NCBI GenBank assembly: GCA_963785235.1
Contig: CAWAUM010000011.1
Span: 233,724 to 297,723 of the forward strand
Source: an uncultured delta proteobacterium
GTDB taxonomy: Bacteria; Desulfobacterota; Desulfomonilia; UBA1062
DNA: 64,000 nt
Direction of reading: 5' to 3'
Position 1 is the first letter of the stretch, and the number at the start of each line of letters is the position of its first letter. This document shows, one piece after another, positions 5,953 through 58,156 of this stretch. A program made the translations under genes and the position numbers. The notes beneath the pieces are model-generated. The model had not been told where the DNA came from and searched no databases. It saw only the letters and a program-made list of their open reading frames with translations.

Positions 5953-5994
5953 AGTGACCCCTGCATAGCCTTCCAGACATTTTGTTGCGAGAGG

Positions 5995-6070
5995 AAAAAA
6001 CCTTACCCGTTCAAAACATGCATCTTGGTGAAACCAAGATGCATGTTTTGAACGGGCCAATTTTTGGTTT
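5995..6070. repeat. Palindromic repeat element copy 1 (23-bp perfect stem, 5-nt loop, T-runs on both sides; candidate bidirectional terminator between convergent hemW-like and dnaA)
   Basis: The sequence is aaaaccttaCCCGTTcaaaacatgcatcttgg-tgaaa-ccaagatgcatgttttgAACGGGccaatttttgg. The same architecture and flanks recur at 22946-23017 in inverted orientation and at 41655-41756. Confidence 0.8.
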
Positions 6071-6122
6071 GCATCTCAAGGATTCTTTTGTTGTGAAATG
6101 TTCTGATGAGGGTAAAAAGCCC

Positions 6123-7469
6123 TCAAGCCGACTCACTGTCAAGCTTCTCAATGAGGAAATCAATCTCCCGCTTCACCTTGAGGTTCTGTGTGTACTGGGC
6201 CTCGATTGTCTCTAGGGAGTGGATGACAGAGGAGTGCTTCCGGGAGAAGGCCTCGCCAATGATCTGCAGCGGCTCCTCAGTATAACGTCTGCACAGGAAG
6301 ATAGCCACCTGGCGTGGATATACGATGTCCTTCTTCCGTGAAGGTGAGACAATCTTGTCTTTGGGTATGGAAAAATTTTTCGAGATGAAATCAAGAATAT
6401 ACGGGATGTTTATCCGCTGCTGTTTTTCCAGGGTCCCTTCAAGGAGTTCCCGGGCAAGCTCCAGGGTGATCGTACGCTTCATGAGAGAGCTCATGGCGGA
6501 AATGGTCATCACCGCACTTTCCAAGTCCCTGATGCTGGTATGGATGGTATTGCTCATGAACTCCACCACCTCATCGGGCATGCTTACCCCGTTCTTTTTT
6601 GCCTTGTGGCGGACAATCTTGGCCCTCGTTGTCTTATCAGGGCGCTTGATATCGATAACGAGCCCAGAAGATAAGCGTGACCTGAGTCCCTTGTCGATCT
6701 GGGGTATGGAAGTGGGCGGACGGAAGCCCGAGAGGATCACCTGCTTGCCCGCACTGATGAGGTCGTCAAGCACATGGCATAATTCAACCTGGGTCTTTTC
6801 CTTATTTTTGAAGAGATGGACATCATCAATAAAAAAGATATCCATGTTTTGGCTTCGGTATGAGCTTTTGAAGGAACTGAGAAAATTGTTTCTCACCGAG
6901 TGGACATAATCCTGCGTAAAGTCCCTGGCTGTAGTGTACCGCACACTGGTCCCATTGCGTAATGAAACGAGCTTGTTCCCTATGGCATGGGAGATGTGGC
7001 TCTTTCCAAGACCCACATCGGAATAAAAGTACAGAGGGTTATACCGGCGCAGATCCCCTTCGGAGACCGCAAGTGCCGCCTCATAGGCAAAGGCATTGCA
7101 TTTGCCCACTACAAACTCGTCAAAGGTGAATTGGGCATTGAGTCCGGATGAGGCCGGCGTTGGAAGATGTGAGGGCAGGCTCATCTGAATGGGAAGGCTA
7201 TCAGCCTGCGCCGGCCTTTGTGCCTGATGCTCGCTGAGAGGATTTACGCAGAACTCAACATCTGCCGGTCTGCCGAGATGAGACCTGACAGATGAGATGA
7301 TAAGATCTTTATAAACCCGGGATATATGCCTCTGGGCAAAGACATTGGGACAGCGGACAAAGACAGTGCCATCCTCCTCACAGATATCGATCTGGTCTAT
7401 GAGCGCCCTGTCCGATGCGGCATGCGACATTGAGAGAATAGATTCTTTAATAATTGCAAAGTGATTCAC
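6123..7469 (-). CDS. dnaA: Chromosomal replication initiator protein DnaA
   Basis: 448 aa. It has Walker A (GLGKSHISHAIGNK), Walker B (FFIDDVHLF), a sensor region and the C-terminal DnaA DNA-binding helix (VYPRQVAIFLCRRYTEEPLQIIGEAF). Confidence 0.92.
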   Translation of the reverse strand: MNHFAIIKESILSMSHAASDRALIDQIDICEEDGTVFVRCPNVFAQRHISRVYKDLIISSVRSHLGRPADVEFCVNPLSEHQAQRPAQADSLPIQMSLPSHLPTPASSGLNAQFTFDEFVVGKCNAFAYEAALAVSEGDLRRYNPLYFYSDVGLGKSHISHAIGNKLVSLRNGTSVRYTTARDFTQDYVHSVRNNFLSSFKSSYRSQNMDIFFIDDVHLFKNKEKTQVELCHVLDDLISAGKQVILSGFRPPTSIPQIDKGLRSRLSSGLVIDIKRPDKTTRAKIVRHKAKKNGVSMPDEVVEFMSNTIHTSIRDLESAVMTISAMSSLMKRTITLELARELLEGTLEKQQRINIPYILDFISKNFSIPKDKIVSPSRKKDIVYPRQVAIFLCRRYTEEPLQIIGEAFSRKHSSVIHSLETIEAQYTQNLKVKREIDFLIEKLDSESA

Positions 7470-7727
7470 AAAAAACCCCCACAGAGAGTAAATTCATAGT
7501 TAACGGGTGACATAATGGGTCTAGTGAAAAAAAAGGTCAAAGGTGAAACACCCCGGTTATAGGTAGACCGTGTTAATTTTGTGTAAAGGGAAATAACTAT
7601 AGTAATATTAATAACATGAATAGCGGATCGCGACATTCAGGGCATCTGGTGGCACCCGTTCAGGACTCTGGTCGTACCTGGTTCCGGAAGTCTTATCTAC
7701 ATTTTGTAGAAAACTGATGAGCTCTTA
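7470..7727. promoter_or_regulatory. dnaA upstream AT-rich region with one DnaA-box-like 9-mer (TTATCTACA at about 7694)
   Basis: This is the intergenic region between the dnaA start and the glgA end. It contains an AT-rich tract (ctatagtaatattaataacatgaatag) and a single box one mismatch from the TTATCCACA consensus. Confidence 0.25.
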
Positions 7728-9162
7728 TTATCTTGATCTTTCTTTGAAAACTTTGAGATTACGATAGATGAGTGAATACTGCCCGGCAGGTTTTGCCCAG
7801 CTCACATCGAGTTCCATTGCATTGCTTATCATAGCATTAAGCAGGTCTCTCTCATCTTTAAAGATTCTGCATGCCTGTGAGACCGCATGCAGCAGTGCTT
7901 CCGTGTCTGGGGTAGGTCACCCGCAGGCCTGTGGGGTTATCGCCTTCGCCAAGGGCAGTGACCGTATCCCGTAAGCCCCCTACACCGGTAACGATGGGGA
8001 TGGTACCATAGCGCATGCTGATCAGCTGGTTTAGCCCGCACGGCTCGAACCGGGAAGGCATGAGAAAAAAATCAGATCCTGCCTCGATGGCATGGGCCTT
8101 TGTCTCATCGAACCCTATGAAGATACCGACCTGTCCGCCGAATTCCTGATGGAGTTCGGCGAGTTTGCGCTCAAAGGCAGGGTTCCCGTTTCCGAGAATG
8201 ACTAATTTGGCACCCATGGCCGCTATCTTCGGGATGGCATCCAGTACGCAATCGATGCCCTTCTGCTCAACGAGGCGGCTGATGAGCCCGAATACCGGGG
8301 CGTCGTCAAGGGCCAATGAGAACATCTCCAGTAGAGCCCTTTTGCACAAGGCCTTGCCCTTTAAATCCCTTGCAGAATACTGAGAAGCTATGAGGATGTC
8401 TTCAGCCGGATTCCATGTATCGATATCTATGCCGTTGGCAATACCGGTGAGCTTATATGAAATGGCTTTGAGGAGCCCATCGAGGCCGCTTCCGAACTCA
8501 CTTGTCTGGATCTCCTGGGCATAAGTGGGGCTCACGGTATTCACTGCATCGGCAAATATAAGCCCGGCCTTCATGATGTTTATCCTGCCATAATATTCCA
8601 TGGCATCAGGGTGGAATAACTCGTGCGGCAGGAAGAGCATGGACCAGAGTATGGCATCGAAGAGGCCCTGGTAGGCTAGGTTATGGATGGTGAACAGGCT
8701 GCCGACCTTCTCGATGCCTGCGTCTTTCATGTAGGCAAGCACCAGGGCTGTCTGCCAGTCATTGCAGTGGACGATATCCACATCACCCATGAGCCTGATC
8801 ATCTCCACACATGCCCGCGAGAAGAAGGCGAAGCGCTCGAGGTTATCCGGATAATCGTAGCCCGCAAAGGAATACAGACCTGTCCGGTCAGAGAACAGCG
8901 GATGCGAAATGAAGTAGGTCGTGCCATGCGAGAAGATCTTCGCTTCCGAAATCCCCGTTCCGGTGAGGACCGATATATCGCCATGGGGCTTCAGTGCAAG
9001 TCCCATGTTCATGACTTCACGGTACAGCGGCATCACCACGGAACAATCAATACCCTGCCGGTTAAGCTCGGCAGGCAGGGCCGCGCTTACATCCGCCAGT
9101 CCCCCGGTCTTTGCATACGGAGTGACCTCGGATGAACATACCAATACCTTCATAACAGCCAT
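7728..9162 (-). CDS. glgA: Glycogen synthase GlgA (interrupted by one apparent frameshift near 7885)
   Basis: The N-terminus VCSSEVTPYAKTGGLADV carries the KTGGL motif. The ORF 7858-9162 ends prematurely. The authentic C-terminus (EALLHAVSQACRIFKDERDLLNAMISNAMELDVSWAKPAGQYSLIYRNL) is read in the +1 frame down to about 7728. Confidence 0.8.
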
Positions 9163-9520
9163 AGTTTATACCATACACTAAGAATGGTCGGGCAGTAAAG
9201 ACAAGGGAGTACAAACCCGGATTTTACAGGTGGACATGTCCATGAATAGGTTCTGTACTTCAGAAGCACCTTAAACAGTAAACCAAAAGTGTCCATGGAT
9301 TGCTTTTAAAATAGGCCGTTCATCCTTCACTTGCAGCTCAGGACAGAAATTAGCATTCCCAAACTGCATGAATGCACAAAATCCATGGGATACAAGGGGT
9401 TCTTCCTATGGAAGTATCCTTTTATATCAGAGAAAAGATCCCTGCATAAAAATAAAAGATCACACATGACATCAGAACGTGAGGTTTACTTTTAGTGCGC
9501 TATCGGGTTAAGCTGAGTTC

Positions 9521-10117
9521 ATGACCAGGGAGGAGTTTGAAATATCGCTTAAGGAATTCGAGTCGCAGATCAAGAAGAAGCTCCCCTCCATGATCAACAG
9601 CTACCTCATGAATCGAGGGAACCGTGAGTTTGAAACGGCCTTCACCCATCTTGTGGAGATCCTGGGCAGACAGAGGAAGAATCTCCTGAAGGACCTGACC
9701 AGGGTGGCAAGGCTCGAACAGAAGACCCGGTACTTCAATGCCACCAATAATATGGATTCCCAGCTCAGGAGCATGGGAAACAGAGATGCCTTGAAACAAC
9801 AGACGAAATTGCGGCAGCATCGTGTCCATGCACCGCTTGTCTATGACCTCGGGGCAGGGCCTGAAGCGGGTGACCTCCTGAACGCCGATGATTTAGGCGT
9901 CTTGCTGGAGACTACGGAAAAGGTATCCATCGACCATGAGGTGAGGATAAGCCTCTCAGGGAAAAAGGCGCGCGGCAAGGCCATGTGGTCAATCCCTGAT
10001 GAGACAGGCCGCATGGAGACGGGGGTCAAACTGCTCAATCCATCTGAGGATTTCCTGGAAGAACTCAAGAAGATTATCAAGAAGCCTGCAAAAAAGCAGA
10101 AAAATCCTCATGATTGA
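9521..10117 (+). CDS. Hypothetical protein (charged and coiled N-terminus; no confident family)
   Basis: 198-aa ORF in an otherwise empty 1-kb gap with reasonable coding periodicity. It has a weak RxxR...NADDLG PilZ-like pattern that is not convincing. Confidence 0.4.
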   Translation: MTREEFEISLKEFESQIKKKLPSMINSYLMNRGNREFETAFTHLVEILGRQRKNLLKDLTRVARLEQKTRYFNATNNMDSQLRSMGNRDALKQQTKLRQHRVHAPLVYDLGAGPEAGDLLNADDLGVLLETTEKVSIDHEVRISLSGKKARGKAMWSIPDETGRMETGVKLLNPSEDFLEELKKIIKKPAKKQKNPHD

Positions 10118-18350: not shown

Positions 18351-18565
18351 TGCCAGAAAAATAGTATACACAAGATCGAGAAGTACCTTTTAATCTGGAG
18401 GTTGCAGTTGAAAGTGCCCATGAGCACTCCATGCCCTTCGTGAGCGGCTTAAGCATAAGACTCATGGTGGTGATCTATAATATTTTAACGGATTAAGTTT
18501 TAACACATCCTGAATGCAAAATCCGGGTTATTGTTGTCTCCCGGAGACAACATACCCACAAAGCT

Positions 18566-18600
18566 CTTGACAGACATACCCTGCCCATATATTAAGATTC
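18566..18600 (+). promoter_or_regulatory. Candidate sigma-70 promoter of rpsT (TTGACA with a spaced TATATT/TATTAA); an AAGGAGG RBS lies at about 18621
   Basis: The sequence cTTGACAgacataccctgcccaTATATTaagat lies about 40 nt upstream of the rpsT ATG. A GTTGTCTCCcGGAGACAAC hairpin sits just upstream. Confidence 0.4.
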
Positions 18601-18637
18601 ACTTCGTAGCAGTGATACTAAGGAGGATACAGAGTTA

Positions 18638-18904
18638 ATGGCTAACCATGCTTCAGCCCTGAAGAGACAGCGCCAGAGTGAAAAACGGCGTTCAAGGAAT
18701 AGAGGTCACAAGTCCGCTATTAATACGACCGTCAAGAAGGTTCTCACTTCTATAAGCGCCAAAGAATCTGATAAGGCACGTGAATTATCCCGTGAGGCAG
18801 TGGCCCTAATGGACAGCGCCGTTACCAAGGGTGTGCTGCACAGGAAGACCGCTTCCCGGAAGATCTCACGCCTCACCAAGATGGTGAACGCCCAGGTTTC
18901 TTAA
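18638..18904 (+). CDS. rpsT: 30S ribosomal protein S20
   Basis: 88 aa. The N-terminus MANHASALKRQRQSEKRRSRNR is the bS20 signature. Confidence 0.9.
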   Translation: MANHASALKRQRQSEKRRSRNRGHKSAINTTVKKVLTSISAKESDKARELSREAVALMDSAVTKGVLHRKTASRKISRLTKMVNAQVS

Positions 18905-20378: not shown

Positions 20379-22815
20379 AGATGACCTTGCGTATGGATAC
20401 CCCTTCGATAAAGCGCTTCACGTTCGTGTCGGAATACGCAGCGGTTTCCACCTCAGCCTGAGGCGTATCCTTGGGCATTTCGATGGTGGCGCGCAGCTTG
20501 CCGTTCACCTGTACCGCGATTGTCACATTCGAGTCCTGGGCCCATGTGGGATCGAATTCGGGCCAGGGGTGCTCGAAGAGCCTGCCTGACAACCCTATGG
20601 TTTCCCACAGCTCATCGGCGATATGCGGGACAAAGGGCGAGAGCATGATGATCAGGTGCTCGATGGAATACTTCAGCACAGCCGCTTCTTCGGCGTCCTT
20701 TACCACTTCTTTTGTCTTATAGAGATCGTTTATGAGCTCCATCATGGCGGCTATGGCCGTATTGAACCGGAAGCGCTTGTCTATGTCCTCAGTGACCTTG
20801 CGGATGGTCTGGTGTGTCTTCCTCATGATGGGCTCTACGGATGCCGGTACCCGGGTAACCTTAGATGTCCCCTCCATTGCCTTGATGTCCATGGCAAGAC
20901 GCCAGAGCCGGGTCAGAAACCGGTAGGTCCCCTCAATACCCTGGTCGCTCCAGTCCATGTCCTTCTCGGGCGGGGCGGCAAAGAGGGTGAAGAGCCTGGT
21001 GGCGTCAGCGCCGTAGCGTGCTATCATGTCTTCGGGATCAATCACGTTACCCTTGGACTTACTCATCTTGGCGCCGTCTTTGATGACCATGCCCTGGGTC
21101 AGCAGCCTCTCAAACGGTTCATCAAATGCCACATAACCCAGGTCGCGCAGCACCATGGTAAAGAACCGTGAGTACATGAGGTGCAATATGGCATGCTCGA
21201 TGCCGCCGATGTACTGGTCCACCGGCATCCAGTACGCAACCTCCTTGGCGTCAAAGGCCTTGTCCTTGTGGTTGGGGCTGGTATAGCGGATGAAGTACCA
21301 GGAGGACTCCACAAAGGTGTCCATGGTGTCGGTCTCACGCTTGGCCTTGCCGCCGCATGAAGGGCACTTCGTGTTCACGAATGACTCCACCTGGGCTATG
21401 GGTGATTCGCCGGCGCCGGTGAGCTTTACGTCCTCGGGCAGGATAATGGGCAGGTCTTCTTTTTTTACCGGGACGGTTCCGCACTTTTCGCAGTGCACCA
21501 CCGGGATGGGTGCGCCCCAGTAACGCTGTCTCGATATGCCCCAGTCACGCAGTTTGAAGTTGATTGTGGGCTCACCCCTGCCAAGGGACTGGAGATGTTC
21601 GGTGATGCCCTTCATGGCGTCGGTATTCTTCATGCCGTTGAACTGCTGTGAATTCACCAGCACACCTTCACCCTCGTAGGCAGCTTCCATAGTCTCCGCC
21701 TTGAGTTCTTCGCCCTCAGGCTGGATGACCACTATGATGGTAAGGCCGTATTTCTTGGCAAACTCGAAGTCGCGCTGATCGTGCGAGGGCACGGCCATGA
21801 CTGCGCCGGTGCCGTAGTCATACAGCACGAAGTTGGCCACATAGATGGGCATCAGAAAGCCGGTGAGCGGATTTGTGCAGTATTTGCCCGTGAACACGCC
21901 CTCTTTCTCATAGGAATCCGAGGTACGGGTGATCTTGTCCTCCTTGAGGGTCTTGTCTATAAAGGCCTTCACTGCTCCTTCCTGGCCGGTCCCTTTGGGC
22001 AGGGTCTTGGCCAGGGGGTGCTCCGGCGCAATGCTCATGAAGGTGGCGCCATAGAGGGTATCGGGTCTGGTGGTGAAGACCTCGATGTCATCATTGGTGC
22101 CATCGATGGCAAACTTCAGGAGCGAGCCTGTGCTCCTGCCGATCCAGTTTCTCTGCATGGTCAGCACGCGCTCGGGCCAGCCTTCTTTGAGGCGCTCGGT
22201 ATTGTCTAGAAGCTCCTGGGCGTATTTGGTGATCTTGAAGAACCACTGGTCGTATTCCCTGAGGTACACCTGTGTGCCGCAGCGCCAGCATGCCCCTGCT
22301 TCCACCTGCTCGTTGGCCAGCACGGTCTTGCAGCTGTCGCACCAGTTCAGAAAGGTGCGGTCCTTGTAGACGAGGCCCTTCTCGAACATCTCTATGAAGA
22401 AGAGCTGCTCCCACTGGTAGTAGTTCGCATCACAGGTGGCGATCTCCCGGTCCCAGTCATAGCTGAATCCCATGCGTTTGAGCTGGACCTTCATGTATGC
22501 CATGTTCTCATAAGTCCATTTTTTGGGGTGCACACCGCTTGCAATGGCGGCGTTCTCAGCGGGCATGCCGAAGGCGTCCCATCCCATGGGATGCAGCACG
22601 TTAAAGCCTTTCATCTTCTTGTAGCGGGCCACCACGTCGCCGATGGTATAGTTGCGGACGTGGCCCATGTGGATACGGCCCGAGGGGTAGGGGAACATCT
22701 CCAGGAGATAGTATTTCTGTTTGGAATCATCGACCTCCACCTTGAAGAGCTTGCTGTCTTCCCAGCGCTTCTGCCATTTGGCCTCGATCTCCTGAGGTCT
22801 GTAGTCCGTCGTCAT
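20332..22815 (-). CDS. leuS: Leucine--tRNA ligase
   Basis: The HIGH motif is [15 protein letters not shown], the KMSKS motif is KMSKSKGN, and the editing domain is present. The likely true start is [15 protein letters not shown] at about 22815. The track ORF extends to 22902. Confidence 0.92.
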
Positions 22816-22945
22816 ACGTTCCTCCACATGAATGGTGAGAGCACAATTAACACAACACCTCCCCTTCGTCCAGTCCCCGTTCCCGCGTATCGAACCGTAC
22901 ATTCCAAGATGATATACATCTTAAATATTTCTTCAGATACAAACC

Positions 22946-23017
22946 AAAAATTGGCCCGTTAAAATCATGAATCTCGGTGAAGCCGAGATTCATGATTTTA
23001 ACGGGTAAGGTTTTTTT
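22946..23017. repeat. Palindromic repeat element copy 2 (inverted orientation relative to copy 1), in the divergent leuS/mrcA intergenic region
   Basis: The sequence is aaaaattggCCCGTTaaaatcatgaatctcgg-tgaag-ccgagattcatgattttAACGGGtaaggttttttt. Its flanks are reverse complements of the copy-1 flanks. The stem differs from copy 1 by compensatory changes. Confidence 0.8.
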
Positions 23018-23141
23018 ATCCGAGACCCTTTCCGGAATTGTGCAAAGCTCTTAACTTTTGTAACTGCATTGGTGTCCCTGAGGTCTCTTCAGGCTCTTTG
23101 CGCTTGCATTTCATGGCCATATTGATATGTAAGGGGACACT

Positions 23142-25547
23142 ATGAGGTGGCTCAAATTCATACTTCTTATCATGGTGATCATCATTGTCCTGTGTGGAGC
23201 AGCAATCTATGTATTCGTACTCAGGGGGCTTCCTTCCCTTGAAGAGCTCAAAGGCGATGAGGTGACCAAGCTCAGCAAGGTTACCGCTGCCGACGGTACA
23301 CCCATCGGCTACTTCCCGCCCGAAGGAAGGGTTGTCATGAACGGGCACAACATCCCCATTACCCTCAAGCAGGCCATCATCGCTGCAGAGGATTCCACCT
23401 TTTATGATCATGTGGGACTTGAACCGCGCAGGATCATAAGTGCATTGCTCGCTGATATCAGGGCAAACTCCTATGTCCAGGGCGCATCTACCATAACCCA
23501 GCAGGTTGTCAGGTCGTATCTGCTCACCAATGAAAAGACCCTTGCCAGGAAGGTCAGGGAGATCGTTCTGGCGCTGCGCATCGAACAGGCCCTGACCAAA
23601 GAGCAGATTTTAAACCTGTACCTTGACCGCATCTACCTGGGAAGCGGGGCCTATGGAGTACAGGCGGCCTCCTTTCGTTATTTCGGCAAGGAGTGCAGAG
23701 AGCTCGAGCTCTCGGAGATGGCACTGCTTGCAGGGCTTGCCCCTGCGCCTACGAGATATTCTCCGCTGAATGATTTCACTGCTGCAAAAAGAAGGCAGTG
23801 GTATGTCCTTTCCCGCATGGTGTCCGAAGGTTACATTACCGGAGACGAGGCCCGTGAGGCATACAAGGACCCTTTGAGGATCATAGCCAAGGATGTGGCC
23901 CAATTTTCCGAATACCCCTATATCACCGACTATGTGAAGACGCTCGTGACCAAGCAGTTCGGCGAAGATATCTTCAACAAAGGGATCATTATCCGCACTT
24001 CGATAATACCTGAGCTCCAGCGCTCGGCAATGCTCGCTGTCCGCAAGGGGGTTATCGAGCTGGAGATGAGACAGGGCAAGTATCGTGGCCCCATAAAGGA
24101 TGTACCCCAAAGCGATGGTACGCTCAAGCCATTGGCCCTGCCGACAAGGATCGCATCTTTGCATTGCAGTCAAACCAGCTTGCATGGAAAGGATACGAAC
24201 CCTATGAGCTCTATTGGGCAGAGGTGACAAGACTGGATCCATTAACGGTAAAACTCGGCACCAGAAGCCTGGAACTCGGCCCGGGCAGCTACGCCTGGAT
24301 CAACCCCAAGGGGAATTGGAATCCCGGCAGCGTGCTCAAGCCCGGCGATCTCATAGCAGCTCTGCTCTACGCCCGGCGGTTTTGTGATCTCGCAACACCC
24401 TCAGGTTCAGGGGGTGCTTGTAGCCTTTGATTTGGAAAAGGCCGGCATCCTTGCCATGGTTGGAGGGGTCGACTATGCCCAGAGCCAGTTCAACAGGGCC
24501 ATATACGCAAGGAGGCAGAGCGGTTCGGCAATAAAACCCTTCATCTATGCGGCAGCTATCGACAAGGGGCTGACCCCGGCCTCCATCATCTTCGACTCGC
24601 CGGTGACCTATAATGCCGGGGCGGATGAGGAAATGTGGCAACCTAAAAACTACGAAAACCGCTTCTATGGTGCAACCACATTGAGGACCGGCCTTGTCCT
24701 GTCAAGAAACGTGGTTACCATAAAGATTTTAAACCAGATCGGCCTTGATTTTGCCATCTCATATATCAGACGGTTCGACATGCAATCGGATCTGCCTCGG
24801 AACCTTTCCCTGGCCCTGGGTTCAGGTTCGGTAACCCCTATTAACCTCTTTAAGGGGTATGCCGAGCTGGCCATCTATGGTCAGAAGTTTGATCCCCATA
24901 TGATCGAGAGCATTGTCCAAAGCGGAAAGGGGACTATCTTTCGTGCCCCTGCAGGCCCGGCAGCACTTACTTCTCCTGTTGTACCTGCGGTAACCGCCGG
25001 AACCGAAGGCATTACGGCAGATACGGCCTCTTTGACCAATGTCTTGCAAGATGGTATTGATGCCATCACGTCTATACCGGACCGGGGAGTTATCTCATCT
25101 CAGACGGCCTTCATTATCACGAACATCCTCAAGGACGTGGTGCAGGCGGGAACAGGTTGGCGTGCAAAGGCGCTTATGAGGCCTATTGCGGGAAAGACAG
25201 GTACCAGCGATGACAGCAAGGATACCTGGTTTATCGGATACTCCCCTGATGTCTTATGCGGTGTATGGGTCGGCTATGACAGCATGACTTCGCTTGGCGC
25301 GAATGAGACAGGCGGTAAAACCGCATGCCCAATATTTGTCGACTTCATGACAACAGCGTTGCGTGACAGGCCTGTGCGCGACTTCAGGGTCCCTGCGGGT
25401 GTGGTATTCGCCAGGGTCAACTCCAATACGGGCAAAGGGGCTGGTGAGGATTCTCTGGAATCACGTTTTGAGGTCTTTAAGCAAGGCAGCGTACCTGCAG
25501 CCGAGAAGGCCGTTAATGATGATCAATTGTTAAAGGAGGTCTTCTGA
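23142..25547 (+). CDS. mrcA: Class A penicillin-binding protein (PBP1A-like; two apparent frameshifts near 24150 and 24390)
   Basis: ORF1 has the transglycosylase motifs (EDSTFYDH, GASTITQQ, RKVRE). ORF 24164-24430 and ORF 24384-25547 carry the transpeptidase motifs SAIKP (SxxK), SRN and KTGT. Confidence 0.85.
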
Positions 25548-36676: not shown

Positions 36677-37393
36677 ATGGCTTCTCCTTGTCAGACACTG
36701 GCCTTGTACGCTATAGCTCACATCATGCAAAGGGTATTCTGCAAACGCGAGGTGACCCATGGTCTGGACAGGGGTCCTGATGCCGTATCCGCAAGGCTCG
36801 CTGAGCTCCTGCCGGGCAGCCGTATTGTCTGCCTGGCGCAGATTCATTCGGACAGGATCGTAAGGGCCGAGGATATCCCCCCCGGGGTGTTCCCGGAGGC
36901 GGACGGGGTCATTTCTCTGGACCCGTCCCTGGTGCTGTGCATCCGCACTGCCGACTGCGTACCGCTGCTCATGTGGGCGGAAAATACGCCAATAATCGCA
37001 GCGGTTCATGCCGGATGGAAAGGACTCGCGAAGAAGATTGTCTCCAAAACAATCGATCTCATGCGCGCACTAGGCGCGCATGAGATCCATGTAAGCATGG
37101 GGCCATCCATCGGGCCATGCTGCTATGCCGTGGGGACAGAGGTCATTGAGGCACTTCAGACCGGGCCTGACCGACACTTTGGTGGAAGGCTTTATGTGGA
37201 TCTGCACCGCATCTCGGCGCTGCAGGCCAAAAACGCCGGCGTATCGCCTGATATGATCCATCAGGTGCAGGCCTGCACCTACTGCAACAGTGACTCGTTT
37301 TTTTCCTACCGGAGAGAAGGGGAGCATACCGGCAGGAACATATCGCTCATCGGAGGACTCTCATGCTCGTTGCCGGGCTTACAGGCTCTATAG
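36677..37393 (+). CDS. pgeF: YfiH/PgeF family protein (purine nucleoside phosphorylase / peptidoglycan editing factor, DUF152)
   Basis: 238 aa. It has the conserved HS..I, TADCVPLL, HAGWKG and CCY motifs. Confidence 0.8.
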   Translation: MASPCQTLALYAIAHIMQRVFCKREVTHGLDRGPDAVSARLAELLPGSRIVCLAQIHSDRIVRAEDIPPGVFPEADGVISLDPSLVLCIRTADCVPLLMWAENTPIIAAVHAGWKGLAKKIVSKTIDLMRALGAHEIHVSMGPSIGPCCYAVGTEVIEALQTGPDRHFGGRLYVDLHRISALQAKNAGVSPDMIHQVQACTYCNSDSFFSYRREGEHTGRNISLIGGLSCSLPGLQAL

Positions 37394-39839: not shown

Positions 39840-39901
39840 TACCTTAAGACTCCTACCATGCTCTAAATCTCGGCTTGTAAATCTCGGCTTGAAAAACCTG
39901 T

Positions 39902-39950
39902 CCTCTACAGAATGATCATCTCGCCATGCGAGATGATCATTCTGTAGAGG
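39902..39950. terminator. 49-bp perfect palindrome (23-bp stem, 3-nt loop) between convergent proC and LOG genes; candidate bidirectional terminator or REP-like element
   Basis: The sequence is cctctacagaatgatcatctcgc-cat-gcgagatgatcattctgtagagg. It is preceded by the direct repeat aaatctcggcttg x2 (39866-39891). Confidence 0.6.
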
Positions 39951-39998
39951 CTAAATAAAGCTTACTTGCAGCAGACAACAGGGTATCTAAGGTTATTA

Positions 39999-41583: not shown

Positions 41584-41654
41584 TGAATAGGACCGCTTAT
41601 GCAATTCTGATGGTCTTAAGCAGAGTACTCATAGTGAACATGGAATTGTCTTTT

Positions 41655-41756
41655 CATAGGTCCGTTCAAAACCTGCATCTTGCAGCTTTGAAGGTCCGAC
41701 AGAATAAGCATAGAGAAAAGGCTGCAAGATGCAGGTTTTGAACGGATAAGGTTTTT
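41655..41756. repeat. Palindromic repeat element copy 3 (same conserved termini, enlarged loop of about 37 nt), between convergent PHP gene and secretin gene
   Basis: The sequence is CCGTTcaaaacctgcatcttgcagc...gctgcaagatgcaggttttgAACGGataaggttttt. Confidence 0.75.
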
Positions 41757-41822
41757 ACACCTCGTAACCGCAAAATCTGTCTTAAAGGCCTTGGAATGGT
41801 CGCAGCCATTCCCTACCATTCC

Positions 41823-43437
41823 CTACTGGGCCAGGATAATCGGTTCAAGCAGGATAACCAGCTCTGCGGTCTCAACGCTTTTTATCTGCTGGCTGAAGAG
41901 GTATCCAATACCGGGGATACTGCCCAGTATGGGTATACTCGTATTTTCCTGTTTCAGATTCTTGCTGATAAGCCCACCTAAGGCAATAATGTTTCCGCTT
42001 TTAACACGGATCTGGGTGGTGGCCTCTTCAAGCTGCACTGTGGGCAGCGTATAGACATTACCGCTGATGTCGCGTTCTTCAAGCTTCACTATCCGGCTCT
42101 TGATGGGGGTGATGCTCAGGTTTATCGAACCGGTATCCAGGTCGATATTGGGCACGACACCCAGCATGATGCCATCGAAGATAGAACCCACGGTCACCTC
42201 TGGTGTAGTGATTGTCGGGCCACCTTCTGTGGAAGTGGTTGTGAGCTTGATCTCCTGGATATATGAGGTGTTCGTGCCCACACTGATCAGCGCCGGCTGT
42301 CCGTTGGTCACCCTTATCCGGGGATTCGAGAGGACCTTTATGTCTCCGAATTCCTGCAGGGCGTTCATGGCTGCATTAAAGCCGTGAACGTCCGATTGTG
42401 CCTGGATCACCAGGGCAGGGGTGAGGTTAGTCGTTGAGAGCGCAAGGTTCTGCTGGATCGGATTGAAGACGATATCATTGATACTGAGGTGGGTGCTGGT
42501 CCAATCGATGCCGTACTGGCTTTTATCCTTCAGCGCGACCTCAATGATCTTTGCCGTGATGAGGATCTGTGAATTATAATAGGCCTTGATGGTCTTGATG
42601 TAGGCATCGATACGATCTATGGCGTCTCTCCTGTCATTTACCTCAAGGAAACCCAAGGCCCTGTTGAGGGAATACGACCCATCGCGGGTCAGGGTTGACT
42701 TCACATGATCCTCGATCTGTGTGCAGATGTCGCTGGTTGCTACAGGGATGGTGTCCTTGATGGAAAATTCACCGCTCAGGCCGTTATCACTTGATCCGCC
42801 ACTTGATCCGCCACCTGAGCCGCCACTTGAGGAGCCCGAAGAAGAACTGCTTGTAGAGCTGCTGATAACATCTCCTCCCACAGACATGGTGGTCTGTTTC
42901 TGGGAAGACAGGAAATTAAGGTGATAGGTTCTTGAGTCAGTACCCTTTACAGACAGTGCGCGTCCGTCCACCTTATAGAAAATGTGCAGTGCAGATGCTA
43001 CGTTCTCCAGGGCCTCTTCCAGTGGCGTCCTGTTAAATGCAATGGATACGGGCGGTAGAATAATGGGACCTTTGGCTGTTTGTTTATCTTTGGCCGCATC
43101 AGCTGTTTCTTCGGATAGATCGGTGCCGGTGCCCGCCTTAAGGCGTGAGTCAACCACCAGGTCCAGTCCCGCCCTTTCCGCAACGGCTGCAAATACATCG
43201 GTGAAAGCGGCATTGCTTGCGTTAAGGGTTATGGTCTTGCCTTTCAATGGATTCAGCTTGGCCACCTTTGCTTTGGGCAAAAGACTCTAAAGGTTTTGCC
43301 GCCTCAAGAGGTGTTGCAGCTTCCTTTTCTTTTTCAATGGAGAAATCCTCTTTCTTCATCAATTTGTCTGTGGTGCATCCGGAAAGGAAGACGCAACAGA
43401 TAACCGTGAGTAGTGAATACCTAATAAACTTTAACAT
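41823..43437 (-). CDS. Secretin (GspD/PilQ family) lipoprotein of a second T2SS/T4P-like system; apparent frameshift near 43250
   Basis: The C-terminal secretin domain is GQPALISVG...TSIPILGSIPGIGYLFSQ...AELVILLEPIIL. A Gly/Ser linker follows. The N-terminal lipoprotein signal (VFLSGC) is in the separate ORF 43222-43437. Confidence 0.75.
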
Positions 43438-55577: not shown

Positions 55578-56237
55578 ATGTCCAAGGATTATTACCGGAT
55601 TCTGGAAATATCCAAGGATGCAACGTCTTTAGAGATCAAGAAGACCTACCGCAGGCTCGCCCTTCAATATCACCCTGATCGTAACCCCGATAGACCCGGC
55701 CTATAGAGCATTTCAAGGAGATCACCGAGGCATACGGGGTGCTTATCGACCCGGACAAGCGGCGGAAATATGACATGCAGCGTGAGATTCTCCTTCAACC
55801 GGGAGACGGTGTTCGAAGATATCTTATCCAAATCAGAGTTCCGGGACGTCTTCGATGATCTGCCCATACGAAAAGAATGGATTGACCGCATATTGAACGT
55901 GAGCAAGGTCTTTGCCTATGAGGCCTTTGTGGTGGGAGGCACGCCCAGTGCAATCCTGAGGCGGTCCATGGTGCGCCTGGCATCGCAGGGATTGAACAGG
56001 ATGTTCCATGCAGTCATGGACATGCACGAAAAGGTTGCCATCCCTTCAAGCATTGCCGTGCTCGGGGGATACATAACCCTGGAGTACAGGCCGGGCTTTG
56101 TGAAACACAAGATCCGTGTGAAAATACCCAGGAACACGCAGCAAGGCACAATGCTCAGGGTCCTGGGGATGGGCAGGTCAAGCCCGTCAAGAAAGGCAGG
56201 GGACCTCTATTTGCAGGTGGACATCGAATCGTTGTAA
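55578..56237 (+). CDS. J-domain protein (CbpA/DnaJ-like), two apparent frameshifts
   Basis: The J domain is [34 protein letters not shown], then [23 protein letters not shown] in another frame. The C-terminal DnaJ_C-like [22 protein letters not shown]...GDLYLQVDI is in ORF 55770-56237. Confidence 0.65.
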
Positions 56238-57151
56238 ATGACGATCTGGTTCTTGCCGTGCGTCTTGCCCCAGTACATGGCCGCATCCGCCATTTTGATG
56301 ACCTCGTGCGGATCGCTGGAATCCTTCGGCAGGCTGGAAAGGCCTATGGTGACGCTGACCTCAAGCGTTGATTCAACCGTGCTGCAGATACGCTCTGACA
56401 CCACCACGGCCTCTTCAATGGAGGTTTCGGGGAAGAGGATAATGAACTCCTCGCCGCCATAACGGGCAAGGATGTCGCAGTTTCTCGTGTTATGCTTGAA
56501 CACATGGGACAGGCGCACGAGCATTTCGTTGCCCTATTCATGCCCTTTGGCGTCGTTGTACTTCTTGAAATCGTCGATATCGATCATGGCCAGAGACATT
56601 GTCCTGTTGTACCGCAGGTGTCTCGAAACCTCGTTCTTGAGTACGCTCATGAGGTGCCGGAAATTGTACATGCCCGTGAGTTCGTCGGTGCGGGAGAGGT
56701 TCCGGTAGTAGTCAGCCAGTTCGGCCTCCTCTTTGAGCCTGACCTCTTCGAGGATCCTTTGGATGGTGAGGTGGAGGTGGTCGAGCAGAATCGGTTTGGT
56801 AATAAAATCCGAGGCGCCGAGCTTCATGCATTCCACTGCATCACGAATGGTGCCGTACCCGGTAATCATGACAGCCTGGATATCGGACCTGATCTTTTTG
56901 ATGGATTTCAATAACTCCGAACCTGTCATGCCCGGCAGGTGAAGATCCACAATGGCTATATGAAAGAGGTCTTTCTGGACGAATGCAATTGCCTGCTCCC
57001 CACTCATGGCGGTTGTTACATCAAAATCGTGCCCTAAAAGATACTCTTCAATAAGATCAAGGGTCTCCTGTTCATCATCCACAATCAGGACCCGAGTTGT
57101 TTTCTTCACAAGCGTGGCACCCATCGTATCAGCCGTTCTCCTTGTCCTCAC
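56207..57151 (-). CDS. Response regulator with GGDEF output (diguanylate cyclase, PleD-like); one apparent frameshift near 56525
   Basis: REC is VLIVDDEQE...AIVDLHLPGMTG. The GGDEF domain has RYGGEEF in ORF 56207-56524. Confidence 0.8.
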
Positions 57152-57348: not shown

Positions 57349-58156
57349 ATGCAACAGGCTTGTCTTATCAAGAAGATTGAACAGCATATTGAGAGTATTC
57401 CGACGCTTGAGTCCAGCCGGATGAGGCTCTTTAATGTGCTCCAGGAGGAAGAATCCTCCATAGAGGGTATTGAGCAGGTAATATCCAGTGATCCTGCCCT
57501 TGTAGCCAAAGTGATCAAGCTGGCGAATTCGTCGTTCTACCGTCATGCCGACAGGCATGTGGGAATCCAGCAGGCATTACGCACCATCGGTCTTGACATG
57601 GTGAAATGCATCGCATTGTCCATGGCCGTGATGGAGACCTTCGGCACCCAGACCCCTTCAATGAAGCAGCTCTGGAGGCATTCCTATGCAGTGGCTTATA
57701 TATCAGGACTGCTCGGGAATTCCAAAGCCGAGAAGGAGTGTCTCTTCACCGGGGGGCTTCTCCATGATATCGGCAGGATGATACTGATCTGCAGAGACAC
57801 CTGAACACTATCTTCCCCTTTGCGAATTCACCGGTAGCTGGCCCGATCTGGCATTAGAGCGCGATGTTTTCTCCATGGACCACACAATAATCGGCGAAAT
57901 GATCGCGAAGCGCTGGCATTTTCCGCCGGAAGTCATAGCGCTGATAAGGTATCATCATGAACCAATGAGCCGAGCAACCGCCCTTGTTTATCTGACGGAT
58001 CAGGTCGTCATGCAGCATGAGAGGGGTTTGATCACAGAAGATTTTGAGCAGGAGGTCGGAATCAGAAACCATCTTGGTGATGAGTATAAAGATCTTGTAA
58101 ATACTATTAGACAAAGGTATAGAACGAACACGGTTATATTTGAAAATTTGGGGTAA
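57349..58156 (+). CDS. HDOD domain protein (apparent frameshift near 57800-57880)
   Basis: The HDOD signature is ALVAKVIKLANSSFY...ALRTIGLDMVKCIALSMAV...GGLLHDIGRMIL. The continuation is in ORF 57875-58156. Confidence 0.7.

Follow-up and report, generated by a model that had tools for sequence, protein, structure and literature searches.

The 64-kb stretch of DNA analysed here (64,000 nucleotides of contig CAWAUM010000011.1 from an uncultured delta proteobacterium, hereafter the window) harbours four long perfect palindromes in its intergenic regions. The neighbours of copy 1, a HemN-like radical-SAM gene and dnaA, are convergent; copy 2 lies between the divergent leuS and mrcA genes, a further palindrome designated I4 between the convergent proC and LOG-family genes, and copy 3 between convergent genes encoding a PHP-domain protein and a secretin. 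A scan of the whole window for perfect hairpins retrieved these four as the only ones with stems of at least 23 bp (23-26 bp), the next longest being 14 bp; the longest perfect hairpins in five shuffles of the window measured 10-13 bp. Profile searches added two decayed relatives, bringing the family members in the window to six, rather than the three recognised in an earlier sequence-only reading of this DNA. The analyses described below make it likely that these elements constitute one family resembling miniature inverted-repeat transposable elements, or MITEs, being miniature, non-coding and non-autonomous, and that its multiplication within a narrow Desulfomonilia-like lineage was recent. 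The window itself had matches among ENA metagenome contigs. The named relatives of the DnaA, LeuS and ProC proteins of the window were metagenome-assembled genomes of the Desulfomonilia, 'Deltaproteobacteria' or Thermodesulfobacteriota.

The palindromes, to which no strand is assigned, were located at 6006-6056 (copy 1), 22955-23005 (copy 2), 39902-39950 (I4) and 41661-41746 (copy 3). Copy 1 has a 24-bp perfect stem, CCCGTTCAAAACATGCATCTTGGT (arms 6006-6029 and 6033-6056, loop GAA), flanked by AAAAAACCTTA at 5995-6005 and CCAATTTTTGGTTTG at 6057-6071, and copy 2 has a 23-bp perfect stem, CCCGTTAAAATCATGAATCTCGG (arms 22955-22977 and 22983-23005), the loop of which, TGAAG, is inverted relative to the flanks. 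The 23-bp perfect stem of I4, CCTCTACAGAATGATCATCTCGC, encloses the loop CAT and is preceded by the left flank AAAAACCTGT, whilst copy 3 has a 26-bp perfect stem, TCCGTTCAAAACCTGCATCTTGCAGC (arms 41661-41686 and 41721-41746), and a conserved loop of 34 nt. Copies 1 and 2 both have AAAAAACCTTA as one flank and CCAATTTTTGGTTTGYATCT as the other, with the orientation reversed between the two copies. The positions of the three palindromes first described were confirmed, as was the inversion of copy 2 relative to copy 1. The common stem ends and flanks previously ascribed to all three were found in copies 1 and 2 but not in copy 3, which ends in TCCGTT/AACGGA (a compensated change), shares only the AAAAACCTTA side with the other two and is without the CCAATTTTT flank. 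Similarly, what had been taken for a 37-nt loop insertion in copy 3 is the 34-nt loop itself, a conserved feature of its subtype rather than an insertion. Relative to copy 1, I4 was identical at 13 of 23 stem positions, and all 10 differences were mirrored on the other arm. An unrelated 14-bp perfect hairpin (GATCTCATGCGCGC, loop ACTAG) was also observed at 37055-37087, inside the coding region of a Cu-oxidase_4 gene.

Type A and type B units

BLASTN searches, alignments and nhmmer profiles demonstrated that the palindrome is only the core of the element, the whole unit comprising approximately 145-250 nt with conserved arms, in place of the 75 bp or so first estimated. Two types were distinguished. 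Type A (copies 1 and 2, L125c and L126; L numbers denote sequences other than the window) is approximately 145 nt in length with a loop of 3-5 nt, and type B (copy 3, L125a, L125b, L121b and others) is approximately 190-250 nt in length, with a conserved loop of approximately 30 nt, a left arm of approximately 100 nt and a right arm of approximately 40 nt. Type B units are bounded by terminal inverted repeats (TIRs) of 20-25 nt, with the consensus TTAAYCCRGATTTTGCR...YGCAAAATCYGGRTTAA, ending in TTAA; the ends of L125b, for instance, pair over approximately 20 bp and have TTAA on both sides. The type A arm beside AAAAACCTTA is homologous to the type B right arm, and the flank motifs AAAAACYTKA and CCWAW (the latter followed by a T-run) were conserved in all 10 distinct copies. 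The units contain no open reading frame (ORF) and no protein-family match.

Within the window, the full unit of copy 1 (approximately 150 nt) occupies 5953-6102 of the forward strand (nhmmer type A match 5954-6102, E-value 2.6e-47), the unit strand being defined as that with the AAAAACCTTA flank 5' of the palindrome, and lies between the radical-SAM gene on the forward strand and dnaA on the reverse strand. Copy 2 is contained in a 206-nt insertion at 22888-23093 on the reverse strand (nhmmer type A match 22914-23051, E-value 4.3e-37), between mrcA (forward) and leuS (reverse). The type B element of copy 3, at 41592-41785 on the reverse strand (nhmmer match 41592-41798, E-value 5e-57), is situated between the PHP-domain gene (forward) and the secretin gene (reverse) and retains the right TIR, CCGCAAAATCTGTC followed by TTAA at 41768-41785, with the left TIR missing. 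The I4 element (39843-39998, forward strand) fills the intergenic region between proC (forward) and the LOG-family gene (reverse) and has heavily diverged arms; a 14-nt tandem duplication at 39865-39892 (AAATCTCGGCTTGT, then AAATCTCGGCTTGA) was noted just left of its palindrome, where relatives carry the terminal repeat of the element.

Both decayed copies are of type B and lie on the reverse strand. That at 9212-9404, in the divergent intergenic region upstream of glgA (nhmmer type B match 9214-9363, E-value 3.5e-12), has retained the 5' arm CCGTTCATCCTTCACTTGCAGC and the loop, with the other arm degenerate, and an intact orthologous copy is present in L128. The other, at 18390-18544 (nhmmer matches 18390-18471 and 18472-18544), is downstream of a sigma-54 response regulator gene and upstream of the rpsT promoter, and has retained both TIRs but lost profile positions 83-169, corresponding to the inner arm and one palindrome arm. 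The region immediately downstream of this copy, 18545-18640, contains a well-conserved sigma-70-type rpsT promoter (TTGACA, approximately 17 nt, TATATT), and a 9-bp hairpin (GTTGTCTCC GG GAGACAAC) abuts the end of the element.

There were also instances of the two types occurring in proximity. At two unrelated loci, L125 4343-4745 and L139 12536-12840, a type B unit is followed approximately 115-120 nt downstream by a type A unit in the same relative orientation, the spacers being unrelated, which could reflect a preference for adjacent insertion or a composite unit. In the window, a 10-nt sequence, CATTCCCTAC, occurs twice at the 3' end of the secretin gene (41807-41826), exactly at the site of the extra type A-like element in L139 (12787-12830), and this duplication could be an excision or insertion scar.

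Filled and empty sites

A metagenome scan with a pattern combining the flanks and stem ends returned three real matches. L125 and L126 have no genes in common with the window and were matched by BLASTN only in the repeat units, with 76-88% identity over 127-195 nt. Window positions 5956-6100 matched L125 4598-4741 (83% over 145 nt), positions 41595-41785 matched L125 4382-4573 (76% over 195 nt), and a third copy, inverted, was identified at L125 5-186. The sequence-only reading had allowed that its proposal would fail if only the copies it described existed and a recent local duplication accounted for them; the further copies at unrelated loci in other contigs speak against such an origin.

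Comparison of orthologous sites revealed that many are filled in some genomes and empty in others. At the leuS/mrcA site, L133 (94% LeuS identity) and L135 (89%) have a clean 206-nt gap relative to the window, at the junction of GCGCAAAGAG and CGCGGGAAC, and copy 2 is a recent 206-nt insertion, approximately 75-100 nt upstream of the true leuS start, between the divergent genes to which it had previously been assigned. The longest leuS ORF in the window starts at 22902; given that the LeuS proteins of relatives are 826-827 amino acids in length, the true start is expected near 22815, and the intergenic region is longer than the list of ORFs implies. L134 (GCA_964600235.1) harbours a different insert of approximately 215 nt, at approximately 9675-9890, exactly at the leuS/mrcA point occupied by copy 2. 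This insert, with the ends CCTGT...ACAGG, contains CTGTACAGGC as an internal repeat and a called 64-amino-acid ORF, and over roughly its first 20 nt it is similar to the beginning of the window insert; the leuS/mrcA point may be an insertion hot spot.

The other sites varied in a similar manner. The copy upstream of rpsT (18390-18544) was absent from the orthologous site in L133 and L134, whilst the copy at the dnaA site was present in the window-like strains L121-L124 and absent from L128, the DnaA of which is 89% identical. A type B copy downstream of pilQ, beyond the conventional G+C-rich terminator of that gene, was found in L121 and not in L122 or L128, and a site between the CoaE and TPR genes carries a copy in L139 and L142 and is empty in the window. 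L139/L140 (88% ProC identity) harbour four copies in 21 kb, of which one is at a site without an element in the window, two are at the proC and PHP sites of the window and one is an extra type A-like copy. Family members with recognisable TIRs occupy the proC site in L139, L141 and L142. In L145 (77% ProC identity), the proC/LOG spacer of 7 nt and the PHP/secretin spacer of 68 nt are both without an element, and no copy was detected in approximately 200 kb of relatives (L129, L131, L133-L138, L144 and L145). The short-read contigs L141 and L142 end inside elements. Dispersal of this kind, combined with sites that are filled in some genomes and empty in others, is how a mobile repeat behaves after a recent expansion.

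Several features of the neighbouring genes were also noted. The mrcA gene, encoding a class A penicillin-binding protein (23142-25547), is interrupted in the window, with the transglycosylase in one ORF (23142-24227) and the transpeptidase in another (24384-25547); as mrcA is a single gene of 780-815 amino acids in relatives, the split represents a frameshift, arising either from an assembly indel or in a pseudogene. Several other genes also have a truncated appearance, for example those encoding GGDEF (56534-57151), DnaJ_C (a fragment, 55770-56237) and HDOD (57349-57804) proteins. On the dnaA strand, a small stem-loop at 6100-6125 (GAGGG CTTTTTA CCCTC) overlaps the stop codon of that gene and has a compensated variant in L123 (GAAG TTTTT CTTC). 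The dnaA gene is flanked by glgA and the radical-SAM gene, not by dnaN, and the 388-nt non-coding region upstream of it (7470-7857) may be a replication origin.

Paired changes in the stems

The ten distinct palindromes contain 250 perfect Watson-Crick pairs in total. Alignment of the 22 stem pairs shared by them gave 220 paired cells of 222 (99.1%), with changes on both sides in 15 of the 22 pairs, 38 double-changed cells and no one-sided changes of the G-U type. This level of double change was matched in none of 500 shuffles, and was also far from being reached when the partner column was slid sideways, so that the mirroring of stem changes proposed from the first three copies holds for the family. 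It was also seen between true orthologues, in that L123 and L124 differ from copy 1 by a change of C7 to A together with the mirrored change of G to T. Seven stem positions (C2, A8, A10, T18, C19, T20 and G22) were invariant in all copies, the stems begin with YCCGTT, and the tip ATCTYG and base CCGTT are conserved. The loops, in turn, were found to be inverted on occasion: that of L126 is TTC and that of copy 1 GAA, despite arms that are 100% identical, and in L125a the loop, of 28 nt, runs opposite to those of seven other type B copies.

Since wobble pairs are lacking, the stem pairs equally well on both strands, which fits a DNA-level process or a requirement on both transcripts, and not an RNA acting from one strand. 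Polymerase template switching between the arms of inverted repeats is known to homogenise the arms and invert the spacer (PMC8604942), and can yield compensatory stem changes in a single event (PMC8794818). Judging from the pattern of changes, such DNA-level homogenisation of the arms would account for the compensation at least as well as selection for the hairpin, and template switching may have operated in these elements with roughly even odds. The maintenance of pairing is not absolute, as two window copies have decayed, as have the outer pairs of L121b and L142. At the proC site, eight mirrored differences between I4 and the L139 copy were considered as changes in place, a reading that was dropped because the arms are only 52-55% identical where the flanking genes are 90-93% identical, and because L142 holds another variant. 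For these differences, replacement or ectopic conversion would be as likely as change in place.

Interpretation and comparison with known families

The size of the units (145-250 nt, within the MITE range of approximately 50-600 bp), their lack of coding capacity, their dispersal at unrelated loci and their insertion polymorphism are all in keeping with MITEs, and TIRs were found in type B only. The suggestion of a MITE-type mobile palindrome in the sequence-only reading is accordingly well supported by dispersal, by absence from orthologous sites in close relatives and by the TIRs of one subtype, and there is a good probability that the elements are a mobile, non-autonomous repeat family. Movement would occur in trans, through a DDE-type transposase of some insertion sequence that recognises the terminal repeats, and the target is probably TTAA or TA. 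Once inserted, the hairpin (predicted at -40 to -53 kcal/mol and set between an A-run and a T-run) may act as a two-way terminator-like or RNA-stabilising structure, an activity that would make insertions between convergent genes tolerable or useful. The complementarity of the arms would be kept mainly by intramolecular template switching or arm-to-arm conversion, by which a change is copied or erased and by which spacers would also be inverted, with some purifying selection on top.

A possible effect on transcription was assessed from folding and context. RNA hairpins of -40 to -53 kcal/mol were predicted on either strand, with values for copy 1 of -43.8 kcal/mol (z -9.4) on one strand and -46 kcal/mol (z -10.8) on the other, and for copy 3 of -52.7 and -47.9 kcal/mol. 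The hairpin of copies 1 and 2 precedes CCAAUUUUU on one strand and UAAGGUUUUUU on the opposite one, with pairing between the A-run and the T-run; in copy 3 and I4 a U-run is present on a single strand. Copy 1 was not among the sites listed by a terminator consensus scanner. Of the four intact window copies, three are between convergent genes, and copy 2 and the two decayed copies are not. The convergent placement and the A- and T-runs make a two-way terminator-like or transcript-stabilising role after insertion reasonable, and such a role has been proposed for SPRITE and other MITEs (PMC3184786, PMC10969869); for the present elements, bidirectional termination may be viewed as about an even bet. 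A conventional G+C-rich intrinsic terminator follows pilQ at L121 18860-18895 (GCCCCTGCAC-GATAA-GTGCAGGGGC-TTTTT), and its conservation in L121, L122 and L128 indicates that the lineage uses ordinary terminators.

These features could also be read as those of ordinary bidirectional intrinsic terminators that evolved locally under RNA-structure selection, with the likeness between copies arising from a shared requirement and not from mobility. The location of three of the four intact window copies at convergent gene ends, the A-run and T-run bracketing the stem and the very stable hairpins on both strands would suit such terminators, and a need for pairing on two strands would also forbid G-U pairs. 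Against this, conserved arms extend 45-100 nt beyond the hairpin, the same units are found beside unrelated genes, copies also occur between divergent genes and upstream of promoters, type B carries TIRs, the lineage has conventional short G+C-rich terminators, and the length and perfection of the stems go far beyond what termination needs. The filled sites, and the empty orthologous sites of close relatives, largely refute local terminators as the sole explanation, which we consider very unlikely. Extremely unlikely, in our estimation, is the alternative that the units are genes for sibling small RNAs ending in a strong terminator. Units of 145-250 nt do end in a hairpin and T-run on at least one strand, and MITE-derived small RNAs are known in Coxiella (PMC10969869), but no conserved promoter was seen and the units occur in both orientations relative to neighbouring genes. 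Moreover, Rfam 15 gave no match at the gathering score, only sub-threshold matches to miRNA-precursor models (26-40 bits against cut-offs of 70-100), and RNAalifold found no supported structure outside the palindrome in nine type B copies. These results exclude a known RNA family, the miRNA-hairpin matches being due to chance, and, as nothing outside the palindrome covaries, they also argue against the structured RNA put forward in the sequence-only reading.

Other explanations centre on the palindrome as DNA. REP-like extragenic palindromes moved by a RAYT (IS200/IS605-like Y1) transposase that recognises a single-stranded-DNA hairpin would likewise be intergenic, palindromic and multi-copy, in either orientation and with compensated stem changes, and the conservation of stems over arms and of both stem ends (tip ATCTYG, base CCGTT) would be in keeping with recognition that depends on sequence and structure. 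The present elements, however, lack the GTAG or GTGG head, their stems are 23-29 bp, perfect and 48% G+C, their long conserved arms and TTAA-ended TIRs are as would be expected of a DDE cut-and-paste element, and no RAYT, Y1 or other transposase was present among the 30 ORFs scanned with Pfam, which are a part of those in the window. Membership of the REP family, which had been raised previously, is on these grounds rejected for the window copies, and movement by a RAYT appears very improbable. Alternatively, the palindrome might serve as a site that is recognised or processed at the DNA level, for example as a cruciform or hairpin to which a nucleoid protein, a recombinase or a hairpin-forming transposase binds, the arms being incidental. 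Strict Watson-Crick pairing on both strands, the invariant stem positions, the AAAAACYTKA and CCWAW flanks of all ten copies, stems more conserved than arms and the three variants at one proC site are compatible with such a site, which we nonetheless regard as decidedly improbable: no candidate protein is known, copies decay without obvious consequence, close relatives are without the elements, and there is no positional pattern along the chromosome beyond intergenic placement. It is also conceivable, if unlikely, that the central palindrome is the working part of the element, the hairpin being recognised or processed for copying by a novel enzyme. This would explain the best-conserved stem and flanks, the spread of type A without good terminal repeats, the three proC variants and the loop flips. 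Among further candidates, a DNA-uptake sequence (of DUS or USS type) was discarded as the stem motif CCGTTCAAAAC occurs exactly only inside the palindromes and the rest of the window was not enriched in any 8-12-mer of the element; parS, integron attC, telomere-resolvase sites and retron msd were considered and set aside owing to the conserved arms, the TIRs and the lack of an associated gene.

Several observations weigh against the interpretation of the elements as a MITE-like family as proposed above. No transposase with matching ends was found, and the autonomous partner is hypothetical. Type A has weak terminal repeats of 7-12 nt and arms that resemble a direct repeat, neither a TIR nor a target-site duplication can be recognised at the ends of the 206-nt insertion between leuS and mrcA, and several of the 'empty' sites are not clean excisions or insertions. 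Of the possible target-site duplications, which are suggestive at best, only that of L125b (TTAA/TTAA) is clear, the others being approximate (TTAA/TTAT for the 18390-18544 copy and TGAA/TTTA for L121b). With regard to transcription, the U5-U7 tract of copies 1 and 2 begins 4-5 nt past the stem, and this offset, the ordinary terminators of the lineage and the 7-nt convergent spacers of relatives indicate that termination by the elements is not necessary. With regard to the stems, their conservation exceeded that of the arms at three orthologous sites (96% compared with 71-75%, 81% with 70-76% and 68% with 52-55%), indicating that simple homogenisation is insufficient and that some sequence-level constraint or inter-copy conversion acts too, and the proC site holds three different palindrome variants, possibly through replacement rather than change in place. 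Searches for related elements on mobile DNA also returned little, in that plasmids had no BLASTN match, viral contigs had no match to the palindrome pattern and a single chance match to the TIR pattern, in an A+T-rich phage-like locus without an element (L143), and a scan of genome contigs (596 Gb) with the 15-mer AAAACCTTAYCCGTT, a query far too short, gave 120 loci that were all due to chance and had no palindrome. The ends presumably resemble those of IS1380, IS630 or IS5-type elements.

If the MITE-like reading is correct, the family represents a dated, recent MITE burst in a Desulfomonilia lineage that is uncultured, and its occupied and unoccupied sites are possible strain markers. The elements also explain contig breaks in short-read assemblies of the lineage, such as those of L141 and L142, and in annotation their hairpins should be masked as repeats and not called as terminators, small RNAs or regulatory sites. 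The clean two-sided stem pattern without wobble bears on the question of selection versus one-step template switching in 'compensatory' stem evolution, and if the hairpins do terminate transcription, the element would distribute ready-made two-way terminators between convergent genes. Were the palindrome instead the working part, the family would represent a new class of small mobile elements, driven by the hairpin and seeding structures that resemble terminators, as well as a natural system in which arms are matched to each other while diverging from other copies.

With respect to known systems, the patterns of the stems are those predicted by quasipalindrome template-switch mutagenesis, or the homogenisation of inverted-repeat arms (PMC8604942, PMC8794818, PMC7202029), namely two-arm changes without wobble or mismatch intermediates and occasional inversion of the spacer. 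This is a mutational process and not a family of elements, and for the present elements its action is suggested by the pattern only. Among element families, REPs and BIMEs with RAYT share with them the extragenic palindromes, the many copies in both orientations, the stems kept by compensated changes and a possible terminator or mRNA-stabiliser action. They differ in having the GTAG or GTGG head and short, imperfect, G+C-rich stems, in place of the perfect stems of 23-29 bp and 48% G+C, the long conserved arms and the TIRs seen here, and in their RAYT, of which there was none among the 30 window ORFs scanned. Bacterial MITEs such as Chunjie of Geobacter uraniireducens, Nezha, Correia and ERIC (PMC10969869, PMC3184786) are likewise small, non-coding, intergenic and multi-copy with A+T-rich ends, and also share sites that are filled in some relatives and empty in others, the presence of truncated and decayed copies, and predicted folds of great stability. 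Chunjie, compared by description only, has 21-bp TIRs and a length of 178-235 bp in a host that is also a member of the Desulfobacterota, close to the 20-25 nt TIRs of type B; its 9-bp direct repeats were not seen here, where the ends look like TTAA or TA. The present elements further differ from the bacterial MITEs in that type A is without clear TIRs, the parent insertion sequence is not known, and a separate, perfect central palindrome of 23-29 bp is better conserved than the termini. This kind of selfish DNA is well known, and its distinguishing feature in this lineage is the unusually perfect central hairpin.

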